From IMG/VR virus record IMGVR_UViG_2711768005_000013: DNA of 44,601 nucleotides; one strand, given 5' to 3'. This DNA comes from a virus. Taxonomy: Duplodnaviria > Heunggongvirae > Uroviricota > Caudoviricetes. Each line of letters opens with the position of its first letter. Position 1 is the stretch's first letter. The notes beneath the pieces are model-generated. The model was given only the letters and a program-made list of their open reading frames with translations, did not search any database and had not been told where the DNA came from. Below are positions 22,399-44,601 of this stretch, in pieces. The position numbers and the translations under genes are program-made.

Positions 22399-23856
22399 TT
22401 AGGAGCGCCAAAAAAAACCTGAAAACAATATAATAACAGGATAAATTTCAAGGCGACCAAGAATCATAGCTATGCACATTAAATATTTTGCAATGTCATT
22501 AAGCACTCCGAATGACGATGCAGTAGCCCCAAAACCTAATCCCATATTATTAATACATGCAGCCACTGTTGCAAATGATGTAAGAAAATCATATCCCATA
22601 CCATTTAACACCAGTATAAAAAACACCGTGAAGAGAGTATAAAGAAAAAAGAAACTCCATACAGACCTCATTACACGATCTGTAACTATCTTCCCTCCTA
22701 CATTTACACTCAACAACGCTCTGGGATGAGAAAGCTGATTTATCTCGTGTTTGCTTTGTTTGAAAAGTATAAGAAATCGAAGTGACTTAATTCCACCACA
22801 GGTTGAACCTATACATCCCCCAAAGAAACTTGACAACAGCAAAAACACTATCGTGTGCGTGGGCCAGTTTGCATAATCCTGCGTAGCTAAACCATTATCA
22901 GTGAGCATGGAGCTGGCAAGAAAAAACGAATGAATAAAACTTCCATGCAAGTCATACATACCTATATGCCAGACCTGGAAAGAGGTAACAATGATCACCC
23001 CTAAGGCTATTAACAGAAAGAAACGAAGTTCAATATCTCTGATTAAAGGTTTTATCGTTTTTCTGCTAATAACAATATACCAAAGAGTGAAGTTGAAAGC
23101 CGATAGCAGGGAAAAAGAACCAGCCACCAGCTCAACCAAATAGTTATTAAAATATCCGATACTCTCGCTATGAGTTGAGAAACCACCAAGCGAAACTGTG
23201 GAAATCCCGTGACAAATAGCATCAAACAAAGGCATTCCTGCAAGTCTATAACAGACAATACAAGCAATACCTAATAAAGAATAAGTTATCCACAGTGTCC
23301 GTGACGTATCGGCCAGGCGGGGAGTGAGTTTGTCATCCTTAAATGGCCCCGGCATTTCTGACTGATAAAGCTTTGCACCACCAATACCCAATAATGGCAA
23401 TACTGCAACCGCCAGAACAATAACTCCTAAACCACCTATAAAATTTAACTGTGACCGATAGTACAAATATGCCCGAGGTAATGAACTAACATCATCAATT
23501 ACAGTTGCTCCTGTTGTTGTTATTCCAGAAACCCCTTCAAACAGAGCATCAATGAACGTTAAATTAAGTTCTGAGTCAATCCATAAAGGGAATGCACTAA
23601 TAACAGAAAACAAAATCCAAAACATTACAATTATAATAAACCCATCACGGGTACGTAATTGAATGCCAGATTTCTTAGTTGTATACCACGCTCCGCCACC
23701 AATGCAAAAAAATATAACGAAAGTTATAAAGAAAACGAACAGGCTTTTTTCTTTATAAAACAATGCTACAACCATTGGTGGCAACATTGAAAGACTATAG
23801 AGCCAAACCAGGAACCCACACATATGAGTAACAACTCTTACATGAGATGTATTCAT
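22399..23856 (-). CDS. trkG: Trk-system K+ uptake protein TrkG
   Basis: 485 aa from ATG at 23854-23856 (MNTSHVRVVTHMCGFLVWLY), multi-pass membrane protein with TrkH-family GxTTTGATV motif; visibly AT-rich. Confidence 0.9.
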   Translation of the reverse strand: MNTSHVRVVTHMCGFLVWLYSLSMLPPMVVALFYKEKSLFVFFITFVIFFCIGGGAWYTTKKSGIQLRTRDGFIIIVMFWILFSVISAFPLWIDSELNLTFIDALFEGVSGITTTGATVIDDVSSLPRAYLYYRSQLNFIGGLGVIVLAVAVLPLLGIGGAKLYQSEMPGPFKDDKLTPRLADTSRTLWITYSLLGIACIVCYRLAGMPLFDAICHGISTVSLGGFSTHSESIGYFNNYLVELVAGSFSLLSAFNFTLWYIVISRKTIKPLIRDIELRFFLLIALGVIIVTSFQVWHIGMYDLHGSFIHSFFLASSMLTDNGLATQDYANWPTHTIVFLLLSSFFGGCIGSTCGGIKSLRFLILFKQSKHEINQLSHPRALLSVNVGGKIVTDRVMRSVWSFFFLYTLFTVFFILVLNGMGYDFLTSFATVAACINNMGLGFGATASSFGVLNDIAKYLMCIAMILGRLEIYPVIILFSGFFWRS

Positions 23857-23993
23857 ATCTAAATATTCTTTCAATTATAACCACCTTGCTGCAATATTAT
23901 GATTATACTGTATAAAATTTAACTCCTCTTAGATCTTACTTCACTGTTCCTTATGAAACAATCATCAAAATGAATCATATTGTAGTTAAGATT

Positions 23994-35682: not shown

Positions 35683-36105
35683 TTAATGAACAATGACAGA
35701 ATCGTCGGAAGACCCGCCGCCGCTGAAATGCGCTTTCCGGTAAACGGCTTGGACTGCATCATCATGCGCATCAATTGCCGTACTTAACGCTTCCTGCGCC
35801 GCCAGTAATGCACGGCGTTCCAGGGTATCGAAGATGCAGAGTCGGTGACGCAGCTCGCGCGGAAGGATTGCCAGAATTGCTGGGATCAGCTTCTGAATTT
35901 TTTCTCTTTGCGTTTTCGTTTCACCTTTCAACCAACGGTGATAGATATTCTGCTGATTATTCCAGTCCTTGCCTGGTACCAGGGGCAATTCGCCGCCCCC
36001 CTGGCGCAGATATTCTTCAGTAATGGCATTGGCTACCCATGCCTGCCCTTTTTCGGCTGCCAGGGCTAACAACACTGACTCGATGTGCTCATGCTTGATT
36101 TTCAT
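35683..36105 (-). CDS. ydaT: YdaT-like protein
   Basis: 140 aa, matching recalled YdaT length and position downstream of ydaS. Confidence 0.6.
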   Translation of the reverse strand: MKIKHEHIESVLLALAAEKGQAWVANAITEEYLRQGGGELPLVPGKDWNNQQNIYHRWLKGETKTQREKIQKLIPAILAILPRELRHRLCIFDTLERRALLAAQEALSTAIDAHDDAVQAVYRKAHFSGGGSSDDSVIVH

Positions 36106-36356
36106 GAATCAACTCCCATCAGCTTTTTCGTAGTAGTTTTATTTCTGCCAATAGTTAAAATTACATCAGCAGAAAATAATCCGTTTGATGCATGAGCGAT
36201 TTTTTCAGCGTAATTTGTTTCGCCGGTATATTCTGTGCGAGGCAATTTTCCGTTATCCATCCATTTGTAGATTGCTCTTTGGCTGACACCACAAACGTCG
36301 GCCACAACAGAAACGCGAACAGTTTTGATTACATCTTCAAGTGTTTTCTGGTTCAT
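36102..36356 (-). CDS. ydaS: Cro-like HTH protein YdaS-like
   Basis: HTH segment VADVCGVSQRAIYKWM; start taken at ATG 36354-36356 with GAGGG SD (ORF-track start 36428 is upstream); divergent from racR. Confidence 0.55.
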   Translation of the reverse strand: MNQKTLEDVIKTVRVSVVADVCGVSQRAIYKWMDNGKLPRTEYTGETNYAEKIAHASNGLFSADVILTIGRNKTTTKKLMGVDS

Positions 36357-36417
36357 ATCACCCTCACAATGTGAACTTTGAGTACATGCTATAACAGAAC
36401 TGACAGTACATTCAAGA

Positions 36418-36855
36418 GTGAATATCATTGAACTTATGGTTCATGAAGATAAAGCGCGTAAAGAGTTCGCCAGTAGGCTTGCGCTAGCCTGTGAAAACGC
36501 TGGTTATGAACAACATGGAAGGCAGGCAGAAATTGCCCGTCGAATGAAATTAACACCAAAAGCGGTTAGCAAATGGTTTAATGGCGAAACAATTCCTCGC
36601 CGAGAGAAATTAAGGGAATTAGCAACACTCATTGGAACAACACCAACCTATCTTTTGGGAGAGGATACAGAAGAAAGTGGACAGGTACGTTTCTATCAGG
36701 AGTTAAATCCAAGACAAAAAATCATCATTGACCTTCTGGACGAGCTCCCTGACAGTGAGACAGATGAACTTTTAAAAACTCTTGAGGAGAAAAAACAGAA
36801 GTACAATGCAATTTACGAAGAGCTAGCACGAAAGAAAAAACAAAAAGCCTCTTAA
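36418..36855 (+). CDS. racR: Prophage repressor RacR-like (HTH)
   Basis: HTH segment RQAEIARRMKLTPKAVSKWFNGETIP; divergent to ydaS; start codon uncertain (GTG 36418 or ATG 36436). Confidence 0.6.
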   Translation: MNIIELMVHEDKARKEFASRLALACENAGYEQHGRQAEIARRMKLTPKAVSKWFNGETIPRREKLRELATLIGTTPTYLLGEDTEESGQVRFYQELNPRQKIIIDLLDELPDSETDELLKTLEEKKQKYNAIYEELARKKKQKAS

Positions 36856-37145
36856 ACCAGCATAAATCCGGTAGCGTCCCCCTCCGGGTTTGTGCTTCAC
36901 TTTATCCCATCTCATTTTTTTACACACAAAATGTACTTATAGTACTTTACATCAATGAACACAAAGTACATTATATACCTACCAACCCACCCCGCCCCAC
37001 AGAACGCAGGGCAATACTTCGAGTTACCAGGCAGTGGTCAGGGGTTAAGTAGCCAGCCCGAGGCGTATGAACATGACGGCAGGGTTCAGATTTTGCAGTG
37101 CAGCAGGTTTCAGTTCCGCCACCCGGCGTTAAGGGGAGAGATAAG

Positions 37146-37280
37146 ATGGTGCATTACGAAGTAGTTCAGTATTTGATGGATTGTTGCGGTATCACTTACA
37201 ACCAGGCTGTGCAGGCTTTACGCAGCAACGACTGGGATCTCTGGCAGGCAGAAGTCGCTATACACAGCAACAAGATGTGA
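37146..37280 (+). CDS. ydaG: Small protein YdaG-like (44 aa)
   Basis: MVHYEVVQYLMDCCGITYNQAVQALRSNDWDLWQAEVAIHSNKM; Rac position. Confidence 0.55.
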   Translation: MVHYEVVQYLMDCCGITYNQAVQALRSNDWDLWQAEVAIHSNKM

Positions 37281-37290
37281 GATTCGCAAA

Positions 37291-37446
37291 ATGCAAAAAA
37301 TCGACCTCGGCAACAACGAATCCCTGGTGTGCGGCGTGTTCCCCAACCAGGATGGAACGTTCACTGCCATGACGTATACCAAAAGCAAAACATTTAAAAC
37401 CGAAACTGGTGCGCGCCGATGGTTGGAGAAGCACACAGTAAGCTAA
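37291..37446 (+). CDS. ydaF: Small protein YdaF-like (51 aa)
   Basis: MQKIDLGNNESLVCGVFPNQDGTFTAMTYTKSKTFKTETGARRWLEKHTVS; stop overlaps convergent sieB stop. Confidence 0.55.
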   Translation: MQKIDLGNNESLVCGVFPNQDGTFTAMTYTKSKTFKTETGARRWLEKHTVS

Positions 37447-37931
37447 CGATTAAAACGTCTACTCCTGCTGTTCCAGAATAACTTCATAAAATGGGAGTAT
37501 TTTTCGGTGACGAGATAATAAGAACAGTTTGCGCTATCACTCTGATGTTGAATGATGCCCTTCCGTTCTAATTTTTTCATAACCGGGTTACGGCAAGGAG
37601 AAGTGATAATAAGATTTCCTGTTTTAAGGAAATCTTTAAATACAGCGATTTCTTTCTCAGATAAACGAAGCAATACTCGTTGCTCTGGTAGTAATGAATA
37701 ATGCTTTTGAATATGTGCTCGCAATCTTGAGAAGGAAATGGCGACCACGAAAGAAAAGGCAAAAACGATAATCTGAAAGAGCCAAGGTATTTCAGTATAA
37801 GCATTGAATGCGACAGTAAACTCTTTCGGTATCAGCCAGAGAGTGAGACCAAAAATGATAATCGTATACATAAGTATTTCGAGTGGCTCGTTAGCAAAAA
37901 GTTTCAACAATGGAGTAAATACATCCAACAT
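37443..37931 (-). CDS. sieB: Superinfection exclusion protein B
   Basis: 162 aa from ATG at 37929-37931 (MLDVFTPLLKLFANEP...) with membrane segments; Rac position. Confidence 0.7.
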   Translation of the reverse strand: MLDVFTPLLKLFANEPLEILMYTIIIFGLTLWLIPKEFTVAFNAYTEIPWLFQIIVFAFSFVVAISFSRLRAHIQKHYSLLPEQRVLLRLSEKEIAVFKDFLKTGNLIITSPCRNPVMKKLERKGIIQHQSDSANCSYYLVTEKYSHFMKLFWNSRSRRFNR

Positions 37932-38372
37932 ATCAATAACTCTCAACTGTAAGGGTATTGAAATGTTAACACAAGCTCTCGCTGTAGGGGTATAGCCGAG
38001 ACCACCGAAGCCCGGAGGTGGTGAAATAAAACCGGGCACAACACGAAGGCGCATTTCCGATATCCATAAAGAGTCGGTCTTGTCTGTTAAATTTAAATGG
38101 TGGGAGTGCGCCTCCGGTTGTAAATAACGACATTGCTGTGTGTAGTCCTGGCGGCATCAGTTTTTTTCTTGAAGTTCGGCTGATGTCCGCCCTTTTTAAA
38201 GTGAATTTTGTGATGCGGTGAATGCGGCTAAGCGCACGTGGCACAGTTAAAAGTCATGTTAGTCCTTATTGGTTTGGGTGGGAAAGCCGACTGTAATTGT
38301 TAACTGGTTGCAGTCACCTGGAGGCACCAGGCACCGCATCAACAAAGTTCATTTGTAAAAATGGAGATAATT

Positions 38373-38594
38373 ATGATTGCACATCACTTCGGAACTGATG
38401 AAATACCACGTCAGTGTGTGACTCCTGGCGATTATGTTCTTCATGAAGGCCGGACATATATTGCCTCGGCAAACAATATTAAAAAGCGAAAACTATATAT
38501 TCGTAACCTGACCACAAAAACATGCATTACTGACCGCATGATTAAAGTCTTCCTCGGTCGTGATGGTTTACCTGTAAAGGCGGAGTCATGGTGA
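38373..38594 (+). CDS. kilR: Cell-division inhibitor KilR
   Basis: 73 aa [73 protein letters not shown]; GGAG SD. Confidence 0.8.
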
Positions 38595-38763
38595 TGACTA
38601 AGAAAATAAAATGTGCTTACCACCTTTGCAAAAAAGACGTTGAAGAAAGCAAAGCTATTGAAAGAATGCTTCACTTCATGCACGGGATTTTATCAAAAGA
38701 CGAACCGAGAAAATATTGCAGTGAAGCTTGTGCCGAAAAAGACCAGATGGCACATGAACTTTA
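38594..38763 (+). CDS. ydaE: Small Cys-rich protein YdaE-like (56 aa)
   Basis: [19 protein letters not shown]...YCSEACAEKDQMAHEL; in-frame ATG also at 38588. Confidence 0.55.
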
Positions 38764-38838
38764 ATTAATTGACTATTCGAAACTGAATTTATGCCAGAAA
38801 TGGCAGGTATTCGCTCAACCTTAATTAAGGAGAAAAAC

Positions 38839-39114
38839 ATGATTACCAATTATGAAGCCACTGTTGTAACTACCGATGACATTGTTCACGAGGTGAATCT
38901 GGAAGGAAAGCGCATTGGCTACGTAATTAAAACAGAAAATAAAGAAACCCCATTCACTGTGGTTGATATCGATGGTCCATCAGGCAACGTAAAAACACTT
39001 GATGAAGGTGTCAAAAAAATGTGCCTGGTGCATATCGGAAAGAATCTGCCCGCAGAAAAAAAAGCCGAATTTCTGGCAACTCTAATTGCAATGAAATTAA
39101 AAGGTGAAATCTGA
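38839..39114 (+). CDS. racC: RacC
   Basis: 91 aa from ATG with AAGGAG SD (MITNYEATVVTTDDIVHEV...); immediately upstream of recE. Confidence 0.65.
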   Translation: MITNYEATVVTTDDIVHEVNLEGKRIGYVIKTENKETPFTVVDIDGPSGNVKTLDEGVKKMCLVHIGKNLPAEKKAEFLATLIAMKLKGEI

Positions 39115-39215
39115 AAGAAATAGCCTGCGTATGGCGCAGGCTATGAACAGTGTGTATCCGGCAAGATCATTCACTGAACAAAACGAATTTTAATCTGAGT
39201 TGAGGTTAAAAAACA

Positions 39216-41816
39216 ATGAGCACAAAACCACTCTTCCTGTTACGGAAAGCGAAAAAATCATCCGGTGAACCTGACGTCGTCCTGTGGGCAAGCAACGATT
39301 TTGAATCGACCTGTGCCACTCTGGACTACCTGATCGTTAAGTCAGGTAAAAAACTGAGCAGCTATTTTAAAGCTGTTGCCACGAATTTTCCTGTCGTTAA
39401 TGACCTGCCCGCTGAAGGTGAGATCGATTTTACCTGGAGTGAACGCTATCAACTCAGCAAAGACTCCATGACATGGGAACTAAAACCGGGAGCAGCACCA
39501 GACAACGCTCACTATCAAGGCAATACCAACGTCAACGGCGAAGACATGCCTGAGATTGAGGAGAATATGCTACTCCCAATTTCTGGCCAGGAACTGCCCA
39601 TTCGTTGGCTTGCTCAACACGGCAGCGAAAAACCGGTAACGCACGTTTCACGCGACGGACTCCAGGCATTACACATTGCTCGGGCTGAAGAACTACCGGC
39701 TGTTACTGCCCTGGCTGTTTCCCACAAAACCAGCCTGCTCGACCCGCTGGAAATTCGCGAACTCCACAAACTGGTTCGTGACACTGACAAAGTTTTCCCT
39801 AATCCTGGTAATTCAAACCTGGGACTGATAACTGCTTTTTTCGAAGCATACCTGAACGCTGACTACACCGATCGAGGACTGCTGACAAAAGAGTGGATGA
39901 AGGGTAATCGTGTTTCACACATCACTCGCACGGCTTCCGGTGCTAATGCTGGCGGCGGAAACCTCACCGATCGCGGCGAAGGTTTCGTACACGATCTGAC
40001 GTCACTGGCGCGGGACGTAGCCACTGGCGTACTGGCCCGTTCAATGGATCTGGACATCTATAACCTTCATCCGGCACACGCTAAACGCATTGAGGAAATT
40101 ATCGCTGAAAATAAACCGCCCTTTTCTGTTTTCCGCGACAAATTCATCACCATGCCTGGCGGGCTGGATTATTCCCGCGCCATCGTGGTTGCGTCCGTAA
40201 AAGAAGCACCAATTGGGATCGAGGTCATCCCCGCGCACGTCACTGAATATCTGAACAAAGTACTGACTGAAACCGATCATGCCAACCCTGATCCGGAAAT
40301 CGTGGATATTGCCTGCGGTCGCTCCTCTGCCCCGATGCCGCAGCGAGTAACAGAAGAAGGAAAACAGGATGATGAAGAAAAACCGCAACCATCTGGAACA
40401 ACGGCAGTTGAACAGGGAGAGGCTGAAACAATGGAACCGGACGCAACTGAACATCATCAGGACACGCAGCCGCTGGATGCTCAGTCACAGGTAAATTCTG
40501 TTGATGCGAAATATCAGGAACTGCGGGCAGAACTCCATGAAGCCCGGAAAAACATTCCATCAAAAAATCCTGTCGATGCCGATAAATTGCTTGCTGCATC
40601 ACGTGGTGAATTTGTTGACGGAATTAGCGACCCGAACGATCCGAAATGGGTAAAGGGGATCCAGACTCGCGATTGTGTGTACCAGAACCAGCCAGAAACG
40701 GAAAAAACCAGCCCGGATATGAATCAACCTGAGCCAGTAGTGCAACAGGAACCGGAAATAGCCTGCAATGCCTGCGGCCAGACTGGCGGGGATAACTGCC
40801 CTGACTGTGGTGCGGTGATGGGCGACGCAACATACCAGGAAACATTCGATGAAGAGAGTCAGGTTGAAGCTAAGGAAAATGATCCGGAGGAAATGGAAGG
40901 CGCTGAACATCCGCACAATGAGAATGCTGGCAGCGATCCGCATCGCGATTGCAGTGATGAAACTGGCGAAGTCGCAGATCCCGTAATCGTAGAAGACATA
41001 GAGCCAGGTATTTATTACGGAATTTCGAATGAGAATTACCACGCGGGTCCCGGTGTCAGTAAGTCTCAGCTCGATGACATTGCTGATACTCCGGCACTGT
41101 ATTTGTGGCGTAAAAATGCCCCCGTGGACACCACAAAGACAAAAACGCTCGATTTAGGAACCGCTTTCCACTGCCGGGTACTTGAGCCGGAAGAATTCAG
41201 TAACCGCTTTATCGTAGCACCTGAATTTAACCGCCGGACAAACTCCGGAAAAGAAGAAGAGAAAGCGTTTCTGAGGGAATGCGCAAGCACAGGAAAAACG
41301 GTTATCACTGCCGAAGAAGGCCGGAAAATTGAACTCATGTATCAGAGCGTTATGGCTTTGCCGCTGGGGCAATGGCTTGTTGAAAGCGCCGGACACGCTG
41401 AATCATCAATTTACTGGGAAGATCCTGAAACAGCAATTTTGTGTCGGTGCCGTCCGGACAAAATTATCCCTGAATTTCACTGGATCATGGACGTGAAAAC
41501 TACGGCGGATATTCAACGATTCAAAACCGCTTATTACGACTACCGCTATCACGTTCAGGATGCATTCTACAGTGACGGTTATGAAGCACAGTTTGGAGTG
41601 CAGCCAACTTTCGTTTTTCTGGTTGCCAGCACAACTATTGAATGCGGACGTTATCCGGTTGAAATTTTCATGATGGGCGAAGAAGCAAAACTGGCAGGTC
41701 AGCTGGAATATCACCGCAATCTGCGAACCCTGGCTGACTGCCTCAATACCGATGAATGGCCAGCTATTAAGACGTTATCACTGCCCCGCTGGGCTAAGGA
41801 ATATGCAAATGACTAA
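39216..41816 (+). CDS. recE: Exonuclease VIII RecE
   Basis: 866 aa; C-terminal nuclease domain; overlaps recT start (ATGACTAA). Confidence 0.9.
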
Positions 41817-42618
41817 GCAACCACCAATCGCAAAAGCCGATCTGCAAAAAACTCAGGGAAACCGTGCACCAGCAGCAATTAAAAATAACGACGTGATTAG
41901 TTTTATTAACCAGCCATCAATGAAAGAGCAACTGGCAGCAGCTCTTCCACGCCATATGACGGCTGAACGTATGATCCGTATCGCCACCACAGAAATTCGT
42001 AAAGTTCCGGCGTTAGGAAACTGTGACACTATGAGTTTTGTCAGTGCAATCGTACAGTGTTCACAGCTCGGACTTGAGCCCGGTAGCGCCCTCGGTCATG
42101 CATATTTACTGCCTTTTGGTAATAAAAACGAAAAGAGCGGTAAAAAAAACGTTCAGCTAATCATTGGCTATCGCGGCATGATTGATCTGGCTCGCCGTTC
42201 AGGTCAAATCGCCAGCCTGTCAGCCCGTGTTGTCCGTGAAGGTGACGAGTTTAATTTCGAATTTGGCCTTGATGAAAAGTTAATACACCGCCCAGGAGAA
42301 AACGAAGATGCCCCTGTTACCCACGTCTATGCTGTCGCAAGACTGAAAGACGGAGGTACTCAGTTTGAAGTTATGACGCGCAAACAGATTGAGCTGGTGC
42401 GCAGCCAGAGTAAAGCTGGTAATAACGGGCCGTGGGTAACTCACTGGGAAGAAATGGCAAAGAAAACGGCTATTCGTCGCCTGTTCAAATATCTGCCCGT
42501 ATCAATTGAGATCCAGCGTGCAGTATCAATGGATGAAAAGGAACCACTGACAATCGATCCTGCAGATTCCTCTGTATTAACCGGGGAATACAGTGTAATC
42601 GATAATTCAGAGGAATAA
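41809..42618 (+). CDS. recT: Recombinase RecT
   Basis: 269 aa from [25 protein letters not shown]. Confidence 0.9.
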
Positions 42619-42673
42619 TTCAGCCTGGCGGTGTAATGCACCGCCAACTTGAAATATTTTTATGAGAAAAATT

Positions 42674-42823
42674 ATGAGATATGACAATGTTAAACCATGT
42701 CCATTTTGTGGTTGTCCATCAGTAACGGTGAAAGCCATTTCAGGATATTACCGAGCGAAGTGTAACGGATGCGAATCCCGAACCGGTTATGGTGGAAGTG
42801 AAAAAGAAGCACTCGAACGATGA
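42674..42823 (+). pseudogene. ralR: ralR (restriction alleviation / toxin) truncated by an in-frame TGA at codon 50
   Basis: MRYDNVKPCPFCGCPSVTVKAISGYYRAKCNGCESRTGYGGSEKEALER then TGA (42821-42823); the same frame continues NKRTTGNNNGGVHV to TAA at 42866-42868, giving 64 aa if TGA were TGG. Confidence 0.6.
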
Positions 42824-42860
42824 AATAAACGAACCACTGGAAATAATAATGGAGGTGTTC

Positions 42861-43049
42861 ATGTATAAAATTACCGCCACTATTGAAAAGGAAGGTGGCA
42901 CTCCTACTAACTGGACAAGATATTCAAAATCTAAACTAACGAAATCAGAATGCGAAAAAATGCTCTCAGGTAAAAAAGAAGCAGGCGTTTCCAGAGAGCA
43001 GAAAGTAAAACTGATAAATTTTAATTGCGAGAAACTTCAGTCCTCGTGA
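42861..43049 (+). CDS. ydaC: YdaC-like small protein
   Basis: GGAGG SD before ATG 42861 (MYKITATIEKEGG...); alternative in-frame ATG at 42849. Confidence 0.5.
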   Translation: MYKITATIEKEGGTPTNWTRYSKSKLTKSECEKMLSGKKEAGVSREQKVKLINFNCEKLQSS

Positions 43050-43148
43050 ATTGCATTGTATTCAAATTAAAACTTCATAGCTGATTATTAATAATCAACA
43101 TCGGGCGTCAATTTAAGTCTAACATTGGCGCCTGCCAGAGGTGATGCG

Positions 43149-43364
43149 ATGGCACAAGTAATCTTTAATGAAGAGTGGATGGTTGAATACGGCCTGATGC
43201 TTCGCACTGGTCTGGGGGCCAGACAAATTGAAGCATACCGCCAGAACTGTTGGGTGGAAGGCTTCCACTTCAAACGAGTATCTCCTTTAGGGAAGCCAGA
43301 CAGTAAGCGAGGGATTATCTGGTATAACTATCCAAAGATAAATCAGTTTATCAAAGACTCATGA
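43149..43364 (+). CDS. xisR: Excisionase
   Basis: 71 aa immediately upstream of int; start ATG 43149 with GAGGTG SD ([15 protein letters not shown]). Confidence 0.65.
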
Positions 43365-43365
43365 T

Positions 43366-44601
43366 ATGTCTAAATTACCAACAGGTGTCGAGATTCGAGG
43401 TAAATACATTCGCATCTGGTTCATGTTTCGAGGAAAACGATGTCGGGAAACATTGAAAGGCTGGGAGGTTACTAACAGTAACATTAAAAAAGCCGGGAAT
43501 TTAAGAGCGTTGATAGTTCATGAAATCAATTCCGGTGAGTTTGAGTATTTAAGACGTTTTCCCCAGTCCAGCACTGGGGCAAAAATGGTGACAACGAGGG
43601 TCATAAAAACGTTCGGGGAGCTTTGTGATATCTGGACAAAAATTAAAGAAACAGAGTTAACAACAAACACAATGAAGAAAACGAAATCACAATTAAAAAC
43701 ACTCAGGATAATAATTTGTGAGAGTACTCCGATATCGCATATTCGTTATAGCGATATCTTAAACTACCGGAATGAACTGCTGCATGGAGAAACGCTTTAC
43801 CTGGATAATCCAAGATCCAACAAAAAAGGAAGAACCGTGCGCACAGTTGATAACTATATCGCCCTGCTCTGTTCGTTGTTACGTTTTGCGTATCAGTCGG
43901 GATTTATATCAACCAAACCATTTGAAGGAGTAAAGAAATTACAGAGAAACAGAATAAAGCCTGACCCGTTATCTAAAACAGAATTCAATGCATTAATGGA
44001 AAGTGAAAAAGGACAGAGCCAGAACTTGTGGAAATTTGCCGTATACTCCGGGCTTCGTCACGGGGAACTGGCTGCTCTGGCGTGGGAGGATGTGGATTTC
44101 GAGAAGGGAGTTGTGAATGTCAGAAGAAACCTGACGATACTGGATATGTTCGGTCCCCCAAAAACAAATGCGGGGATCCGGACGGTAACACTACTGCAGC
44201 CTGCTCTTGAAGCACTGAAGGAGCAATACAAACTGACCGGGCATCATCGCAAAAGCGAAATCACTTTTTATCATCGGGAGTACGGCAGAACCGAAAAGCA
44301 AAAACTGCATTTTGTTTTCATGCCCAGAGTGTGTAACGGAAAACAGAAACCTTATTACTCGGTAAGCAGTTTGGGTGCGAGATGGAATGCAGCAGTAAAA
44401 CGTGCTGGTATTCGCCGCCGTAATCCGTACCATACGCGGCATACTTTTGCCTGCTGGCTGTTGACGGCAGGAGCGAACCCGGCGTTTATAGCCAGCCAGA
44501 TGGGGCATGAAACTGCGCAGATGGTGTATGAAATTTACGGTATGTGGATTGATGACATGAACGACGAACAGGTAGCCATGTTGAATGCGCGGTTATCGTA
44601 G
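43366..44601 (+). CDS. intR: Tyrosine site-specific integrase
   Basis: 411 aa with C-terminal catalytic region (HTRHTFACWLL...GHETAQMVYEIY); stop codon is the last 3 bases of the window. Confidence 0.9.
   Translation: MSKLPTGVEIRGKYIRIWFMFRGKRCRETLKGWEVTNSNIKKAGNLRALIVHEINSGEFEYLRRFPQSSTGAKMVTTRVIKTFGELCDIWTKIKETELTTNTMKKTKSQLKTLRIIICESTPISHIRYSDILNYRNELLHGETLYLDNPRSNKKGRTVRTVDNYIALLCSLLRFAYQSGFISTKPFEGVKKLQRNRIKPDPLSKTEFNALMESEKGQSQNLWKFAVYSGLRHGELAALAWEDVDFEKGVVNVRRNLTILDMFGPPKTNAGIRTVTLLQPALEALKEQYKLTGHHRKSEITFYHREYGRTEKQKLHFVFMPRVCNGKQKPYYSVSSLGARWNAAVKRAGIRRRNPYHTRHTFACWLLTAGANPAFIASQMGHETAQMVYEIYGMWIDDMNDEQVAMLNARLS

Follow-up and report, generated by a model that had tools for sequence, protein, structure and literature searches.

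A natural nonsense allele of the toxin gene ralR in a Rac-type prophage and the predicted loss of toxicity of its product

The RalR/RalA type I toxin-antitoxin system was described in the cryptic prophage Rac of Escherichia coli K-12 (b1348 and b4714; PMC4041452), where the RalA sRNA represses ralR through 16 complementary nucleotides, a contiguous run of 11 included, beginning 62 nt from its own 5′ end (Guo et al., 2014, PMC4041452). Changes at RalR residues 14, 37, 39, 49, 51, and 52 lowered toxicity, replacement of EKEA by AIAE at residues 43–46 abolished it, and a purified residue-52 mutant, used as the inactive control in that study, showed no DNA cleavage (Guo et al., 2014, PMC4041452). 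The control is listed as K52G in Table 1 of that paper and as K52Q in its text, yet is said to stem from A154G, which in K-12 ralR changes AAA to GAA (K52E); position 52 is consistent throughout, the identity of the residue is not. Lar of Rac is known as a restriction alleviation protein (King and Murray, 1995, as cited in PMC4041452), and the hok-like loci of E. coli K-12 are described as mostly inactive (introduction of PMC4041452).

The locus examined here lies in a window of 44,601 nt, the whole of virus record IMGVR_UViG_2711768005_000013, and corresponds to the RalR/RalA type I toxin-antitoxin pair already known from Rac, with a common natural and probably null allele. Compared with K-12, the gene order is the same, ralR is the same but for two bases, and both RalA (179 nt) and the 16-nt pairing site are identical, whereas codon 50 is a stop, the predicted product has 49 residues rather than 64, and residues at which substitutions are inactivating are missing. 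The downstream gene rcbA encodes 62 residues in the window and 69 in K-12, and the window prophage is full-length with head and tail genes, whereas that of K-12 is a 23-kb remnant. With the Lar family (PF14354, TIGR03655) the window product shares a CxxC…CxxC zinc ribbon followed by a short helix, but it is without the family-invariant C-terminal W-N-x-R signature. The locus resembles the inactivated hok-like loci in that a small mutation appears to have disabled a toxin gene whose cognate regulatory RNA region persists, and differs from them in that ralR would be disabled by a single nonsense codon in a pristine module and is polymorphic in the species.

The reading that we consider very likely is that of a natural nonsense allele (Trp50>UGA) of ralR, the toxin gene of the pair, with a product predicted to be non-toxic. 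A single G>A transition on a haplotype with CGA at codon 49 ends translation after Arg49, and the resulting product keeps the zinc cysteines and the first two helix turns and loses the last helical turn, the Trp50-Asn51-x-Arg53 motif, and an 11-residue flexible tail. The locus would then hold a disarmed toxin beside an intact RalA sRNA, itself left without a live target at this locus. The genes recE, recT, rcbA, xisR, and intR, as well as RalA and the 16-nt pairing site, are unchanged.

The ralR allele and its alignment with K-12

The ralR frame (42674–42868, plus strand) reads MRYDNVKPCPFCGCPSVTVKAISGYYRAKCNGCESRTGYGGSEKEALER, the premature stop, NKRTTGNNNGGVHV, and a final stop, remaining open past the TGA for 14 more codons up to the stop position of K-12 (42866–42868; Table 1). 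A sequence-only reading of the window had placed a TGA at 42821..42823 within ralR, with the frame continuing to a TAA, and had proposed that decoding of this TGA as Trp would give the 64 residues of K-12 RalR. Translation bore out both points: the coordinates are exact, and ralR of MG1655 (b1348, NC_000913.3) encodes these 64 residues, position 50 being W. In a 510-nt alignment with K-12, two bases differ within ralR, namely AGA>CGA at 42818 (Arg49) and TGG>TGA at 42823 (Trp50>stop), and two further differences lie outside the gene, in a T5/T6 run about 15 nt before the start codon and at 43047. Since the 14 codons after the stop equal those of K-12, the in-frame continuation reflects homology and not chance.

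Table 1. Positions of ralR, RalA, and neighboring features in the 44,601-nt window.
Feature	Position	Strand	Description and basis
recE	39216-41816		upstream of recT
recT	41809..42618	+	upstream neighbor of ralR
ralR, truncated allele	42674..42823	+	49 codons and TGA; the annotation of identical genomes has a 150-nt ralR CDS here (WP_001443846.1)
RalA pairing site in ralR mRNA	42796..42811	+	16 nt, AAGTGAAAAAGAAGCA, codons 41-46; defined from PMC4041452
Silent change in ralR codon 49	42818	+	CGA, AGA in K-12; linked to the stop; K-12 alignment
Premature stop TGA	42821..42823	+	codon 50 of ralR; G>A transition at 42823
Untranslated ralR remnant	42824..42868	+	codons 51-64 and original TAA (NKRTTGNNNGGVHV, stop); identical to K-12
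rcbA Shine-Dalgarno sequence	42852-42857	+	GGAGGT; within the ralR remnant, 38 nt downstream of the new stop
rcbA/ydaC	42861..43049	+	62 aa; DUF1187, 132 bits; start ATG overlaps the old ralR stop (ATGTATAA)
RalA sRNA antitoxin	42867..43045	-	179 nt, full length; Rfam RF02694
RalA nt 63-78	42968..42983	-	UGCUUCUUUUUUACCU, pairs with ralR mRNA; PMC4041452 and sequence
xisR	43149-43364	+	
intR	43366-44601	+	

The T-run ahead of ralR (at about 42656–42660) lies between the ralR start and a recT-distal hairpin, GGCGGTG…CACCGCC, at about 42628–42646. It is T5 in the window and in O157:H7 strain 380-94, and T6 in K-12 and strain 23CRST032, so that among the few sequences aligned the TGA haplotype has T5 as a third linked marker.

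Residues removed by the stop and predicted effect on the toxin

The ralR of the window belongs to the RalR/Lar family by descent and by curated score, and its product is an incomplete member. The 49-residue product still scores 126.9 bits against the RalR equivalog model NF007260 (cut-off 113) and 39.0 bits against PF14354 (cut-off 28.6; 53.5 bits for the full 64 residues), and at 40.3 it lies barely above the cut-off of 39.6 of TIGR03655. The Pfam Lar_restr_allev domain spans residues 5–54 of the 64-residue RalR, and the truncated product covers positions 2–52 of the 58 in the profile. All four cysteines of the zinc ribbon (C9, C12, C30, and C33) are retained. The Trp-Asn-x-Arg motif is still encoded, at 42821–42832, but at and beyond the stop, the product ending at Arg49.

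Conservation across the family was assessed with a profile built from five full-length proteins, which recovered 3968 family representatives (E ≤ 0.001, less than 50% mutual identity). In 201 aligned domains from the best 145 of these 3968 representatives, position 50 is Trp in 96%, which amounts to every non-gap residue, and about 4% are without a position-50 column; in the same set Asn51 is found in 93%, Arg53 in 84%, and the four zinc cysteines in 95–97%. A MAFFT alignment of 79 single-domain members leaves only C9, P10, F11, C12, G13, C30, C33, W50, N51, and R53 invariant, and three of these ten positions (W50, N51, and R53) are deleted by the stop. As the motif is part of the profile used to rank the hits, these figures are biased toward motif-bearing sequences, which is partly offset by the independently built Pfam model, whose result goes in the same direction.

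For a full-length homologue, AlphaFold predicts (mean pLDDT 78) a β-hairpin (17–22/25–30) followed by one helix (43–52) and a low-confidence tail. Placed on this model, the stop takes away the last turn of that single helix and leaves seven of its ten residues. A PDB sequence search returned chance matches to CbpD and no solved structure of a relative, and Foldseek returned just generic zinc ribbons such as ELOF1, eIF2-beta, and RPC11 (E ≥ 0.1), none of them close enough to reveal the contacts of the helix. A six-frame HMM search of the window found no second Lar-family gene that could compensate.

The published mutagenesis bears directly on the missing part of the protein. The window product has neither residue 51 nor residue 52, and since single substitutions at either position already reduce or abolish toxicity and DNase activity, we infer that the 49-residue RalR is non-toxic. 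From these point mutants and the conservation of the family, it is very probably a dead toxin that has lost the Mg2+/Ca2+-dependent, non-specific DNase activity and the toxicity seen on overproduction.

Distribution, ancestry, and alternative readings of the stop

The frequency of the allele was determined with 81-nt queries centered on the codon, searched against 5,426 complete E. coli genomes; at this length one mismatch brings identity below 99%, and the top identity band therefore consists of exact matches. For codons 49–50, the CGA-TGA haplotype of the window matched 308 genomes exactly and the AGA-TGG haplotype of K-12 matched 1110, while the two recombinant combinations, CGA-TGG and AGA-TGA, matched none. 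The ralR region is carried by approximately 1,880 of the 5,426 genomes, so that the TGA haplotype makes up 16% of ralR carriers (308/~1,880), or about one in six, and its natural share is higher than this because many of the K-12-type genomes are laboratory derivatives. Over 541 nt around the stop, dozens of genomes match at 100%, among them O26, O103, and O111 strains, and this stretch is found with 100% identity in three deposited phage genomes as well. Some carriers show matches at two or three places. The O157:H7 strains 380-94 and ATCC 35150 also carry the TGA allele, and the exact 49-residue protein occurs on at least 1000 contigs in a large protein collection.

The allele sequence is already catalogued in reference databases. 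RefSeq lists the 49-residue product as WP_001443846.1, RalR, with no pseudogene flag, and PGAP annotates it as a normal RalR; the name was assigned automatically, as the shortened protein still exceeds the NF007260 cut-off. A reference RalR ending at this position, which the sequence-only reading had taken as an observation that would speak against a nonsense mutation, does in the literal sense exist, but WP_001443846.1 is this very allele, named automatically; the record is silent on function and does not refute the nonsense reading. Searches of the literature for truncated ralR or for ralR in O157, one of which was poorly targeted, found no mention of the allele, and Lar is absent as a whole word from two restriction-modification reviews. 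The probable inactivity of the allele and its frequency in EHEC seem not to have been written down before.

Codon 50 is TGG in every comparison examined outside the 308-genome haplotype. The Trp is kept in Salmonella RalR (P0006, LVRWNKRA) and in the Citrobacter Lar proteins P0016 and P0017 (LIRWNRRT). E. coli 23CRST032 and CFIAFB20180540 carry AGA-TGG, as does the Rac-like region of the pPE4 record, and E. coli L73 and the Rac-family phage Rac-SA53 carry CGA-TGG, a combination found only on these diverged Rac backgrounds. The comparison with Rac prophages from elsewhere that the sequence-only reading had called for thus gave TGG in all sampled variants, and since all outgroups agree, the stop is derived and TGG is ancestral. 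The existence of CGA-TGG on diverged backgrounds places the origin of the stop on a CGA haplotype. The two changes are completely linked, with no match to a recombinant haplotype, which fits a single origin of the TGA allele, and the stop can be read as an ordinary, vertically inherited loss-of-function polymorphism, live and probably dead alleles both being common in the species. The pPE4 record (PP818812.1, ‘Actinobacillus phage vB_Apl-pPE4’, Actinobacillus pleuropneumoniae) contains a recT-ralR-ydaC block 90% identical to that of E. coli Rac, in which ralR lacks annotation; the host assignment looks odd for such a sequence.

Whether the TGA marked a nonsense allele or a sequencing error had been left as a choice by the sequence-only reading, and the evidence now falls on one side of it: the ancestral TGG, the invariant residues that are lost, and the effects of mutations in this part of the protein argue for a nonsense allele, and the 308 genomes argue against an error. 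A miscalled A at 42823 over a true TGG would account for a single-base transition that lies one step from the K-12 codon. The haplotype, however, recurs together with the silent marker 5 nt upstream in 308 independently assembled complete genomes from many laboratories and platforms, and the allele is found in the phage records, on the contigs, and in the full-length 541-nt matches described above. Because a random miscall cannot recreate a common allele plus its linked silent marker, sequencing or assembly error is excluded, and its probability is negligible; the TGA in ralR is a real, inherited premature stop.

That the stop leaves some activity behind, either as a dosage-attenuated toxin or as a 49-residue zinc ribbon with a separate Lar-type activity, is unlikely. 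Of the stop codons, UGA is the leakiest in E. coli, and since it is misread as Trp, read-through at the ralR UGA would restore the exact wild-type RalR. In strains with wild-type RF2, basal read-through typically stays well under 1%. Occasional reading of the UGA, here followed by A, by tRNA-Trp would yield low levels of the 64-residue toxin and keep RalA under selection, and it is consistent with this that the near-cognate amino acid for UGA is the ancestral residue and that the 14 downstream codons, RalA, and the pairing site are intact in approximately 319 genomes. There is, however, no programmed read-through feature, and the mark of a recoding site, a stop conserved among relatives, is missing, as the outgroups and the other sampled Rac variants all have TGG. 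The TGA clade has no variation in the downstream extension from which coding constraint could be measured, and the intact 45 nt are expected anyway in a young allele, in a stretch that also holds the ribosome-binding site and start of rcbA. An attenuated toxin is very unlikely; if it were true, a weak RalR/RalA circuit and selection on RalA would persist in O157:H7, O26, O103, O111, and other carriers. It is very improbable, too, that the 49-residue protein is a functional short isoform whose zinc ribbon acts, for example, in Lar-type restriction alleviation, as a dominant-negative, or in regulation, and that the allele is maintained for such an activity. The product retains the zinc ribbon and most of the helix and passes the curated RalR and Lar thresholds, and the allele is frequent and present in major successful lineages, but clonal hitch-hiking accounts equally well for its frequency, and the invariance of W50, N51, and R53 in thousands of members of differing biology speaks for a requirement in the core function of the family. 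The position-50 column is missing from just about 4% of the aligned domains from the best 145 of 3968 representatives, and activity is lost when residue 51 or 52 is mutated (PMC4041452).

The value of the preferred reading, a nonsense allele with a non-toxic product, lies chiefly in annotation and in the population genetics of toxin-antitoxin systems. The carriers include main EHEC serogroups, whose probably inactive ralR is labeled ‘endodeoxyribonuclease toxin’ by annotation pipelines, and surveys that score RalR/RalA as a working type I pair in TGA strains would overcount. The fosfomycin response and other phenotypes attributed to the RalR of K-12 may not hold in these strains. The understanding of the RalR/RalA system itself is unchanged by the allele.

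RalA, rcbA, and the surrounding prophage

RalA, which the sequence-only reading had left unplaced, is matched over model positions 1–179 of RF02694 with 225.1 bits (gathering score 170, E 1.1e-54), no base in its interval differs from K-12, and K-12 ralA (b4714) occupies the same relative position. Its identification rests on the Rfam covariance model, since its minimum free energy is not different from that of shuffled sequences (z = -0.26). The RNA is antisense to rcbA/ydaC, with its 3′ end abutting the old ralR TAA. The complementarity to ralR is present in the window (42796–42811, AAGTGAAAAAGAAGCA, against 42968–42983, AGGTAAAAAAGAAGCA), and the pairing site in ralR is intact, 10 nt upstream of the new stop.

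It had been suggested from the sequence that loss of the toxin could make RalA dispensable, of which the TGA clade gives no sign: RalA equals that of K-12, and a 278-nt query covering the stop and all of RalA matched approximately 319 genomes at ≥99%. The absence of decay is not informative on whether RalA is needed, as the allele is too young, having no other change. Being the antisense strand of rcbA puts a further constraint on RalA. The lack of secondary decay in the downstream codons and in RalA fits a young null allele and does not demonstrate loss of function. Strains with the TGA allele offer a natural test for a role of RalA beyond the silencing of ralR.

Two database proteins, P0012 and P0015, are RalR::YdaC fusions, in which RalR residues 1–46 are joined to the YdaC tail GVSREQKVKLINFNCEKLLSS. 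Such a fusion is the expected product of a recombinational deletion between the two 16-nt repeats (42796–42811 and 42968–42983), a deletion that would also take about 100 nt of the 3′ part of RalA, and it would represent a second, independent natural way of disabling the module.

Translation of rcbA is probably independent of that of ralR, given its own strong Shine-Dalgarno sequence. The gene ends at a TGA (43047–43049) that is AGA in K-12, where the protein extends to 69 residues; the 62-residue form is present in every non-K-12 genome examined, K-12 being the exception among them, and the variable base lies 2 nt upstream of the RalA 5′ end (43045). The G>A change that makes the ralR stop also turns ATGGAA into ATGAAA and thereby lifts a sigma-70-like site (42820–42847, plus strand, ATGAAA-16-AATAAT, 9/12) above the scan threshold. 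An effect on the expression of rcbA, whose ribosome-binding site follows just downstream, is conceivable in principle; with six sites in the region against 2.4 expected, the sigma-70-like site is probably a chance match. A scan of 42450–43400 for intrinsic terminators found no sites.

The order recE-recT-ralR-rcbA/RalA-xisR-intR is that of the attachment-site end of a Rac-type prophage. The window as a whole represents a lambdoid prophage of Rac type at full length, in which terminase, portal, capsid, head, tail, and lysis genes, a 1077-residue tape-measure protein, and a trkG-like gene (22399–23874) are present. The phage record ON470614.1 (vB_EcoS-666R9) is approximately 99% identical to the window over 4455–24458 and 35685–44601, and the intervening 24.5–35.7 kb of the window are mosaic relative to it, with 90–95% identity or without a match; the record stops within the tail genes, perhaps because the prophage was extracted incompletely. 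Two sub-threshold Rfam matches lie side by side on the plus strand of the early-left region, upstream of recE: DicF at 38137–38192 (39.1 bits, gathering score 48) and STnc100 at 38194–38380 (35.5 bits, gathering score 47).
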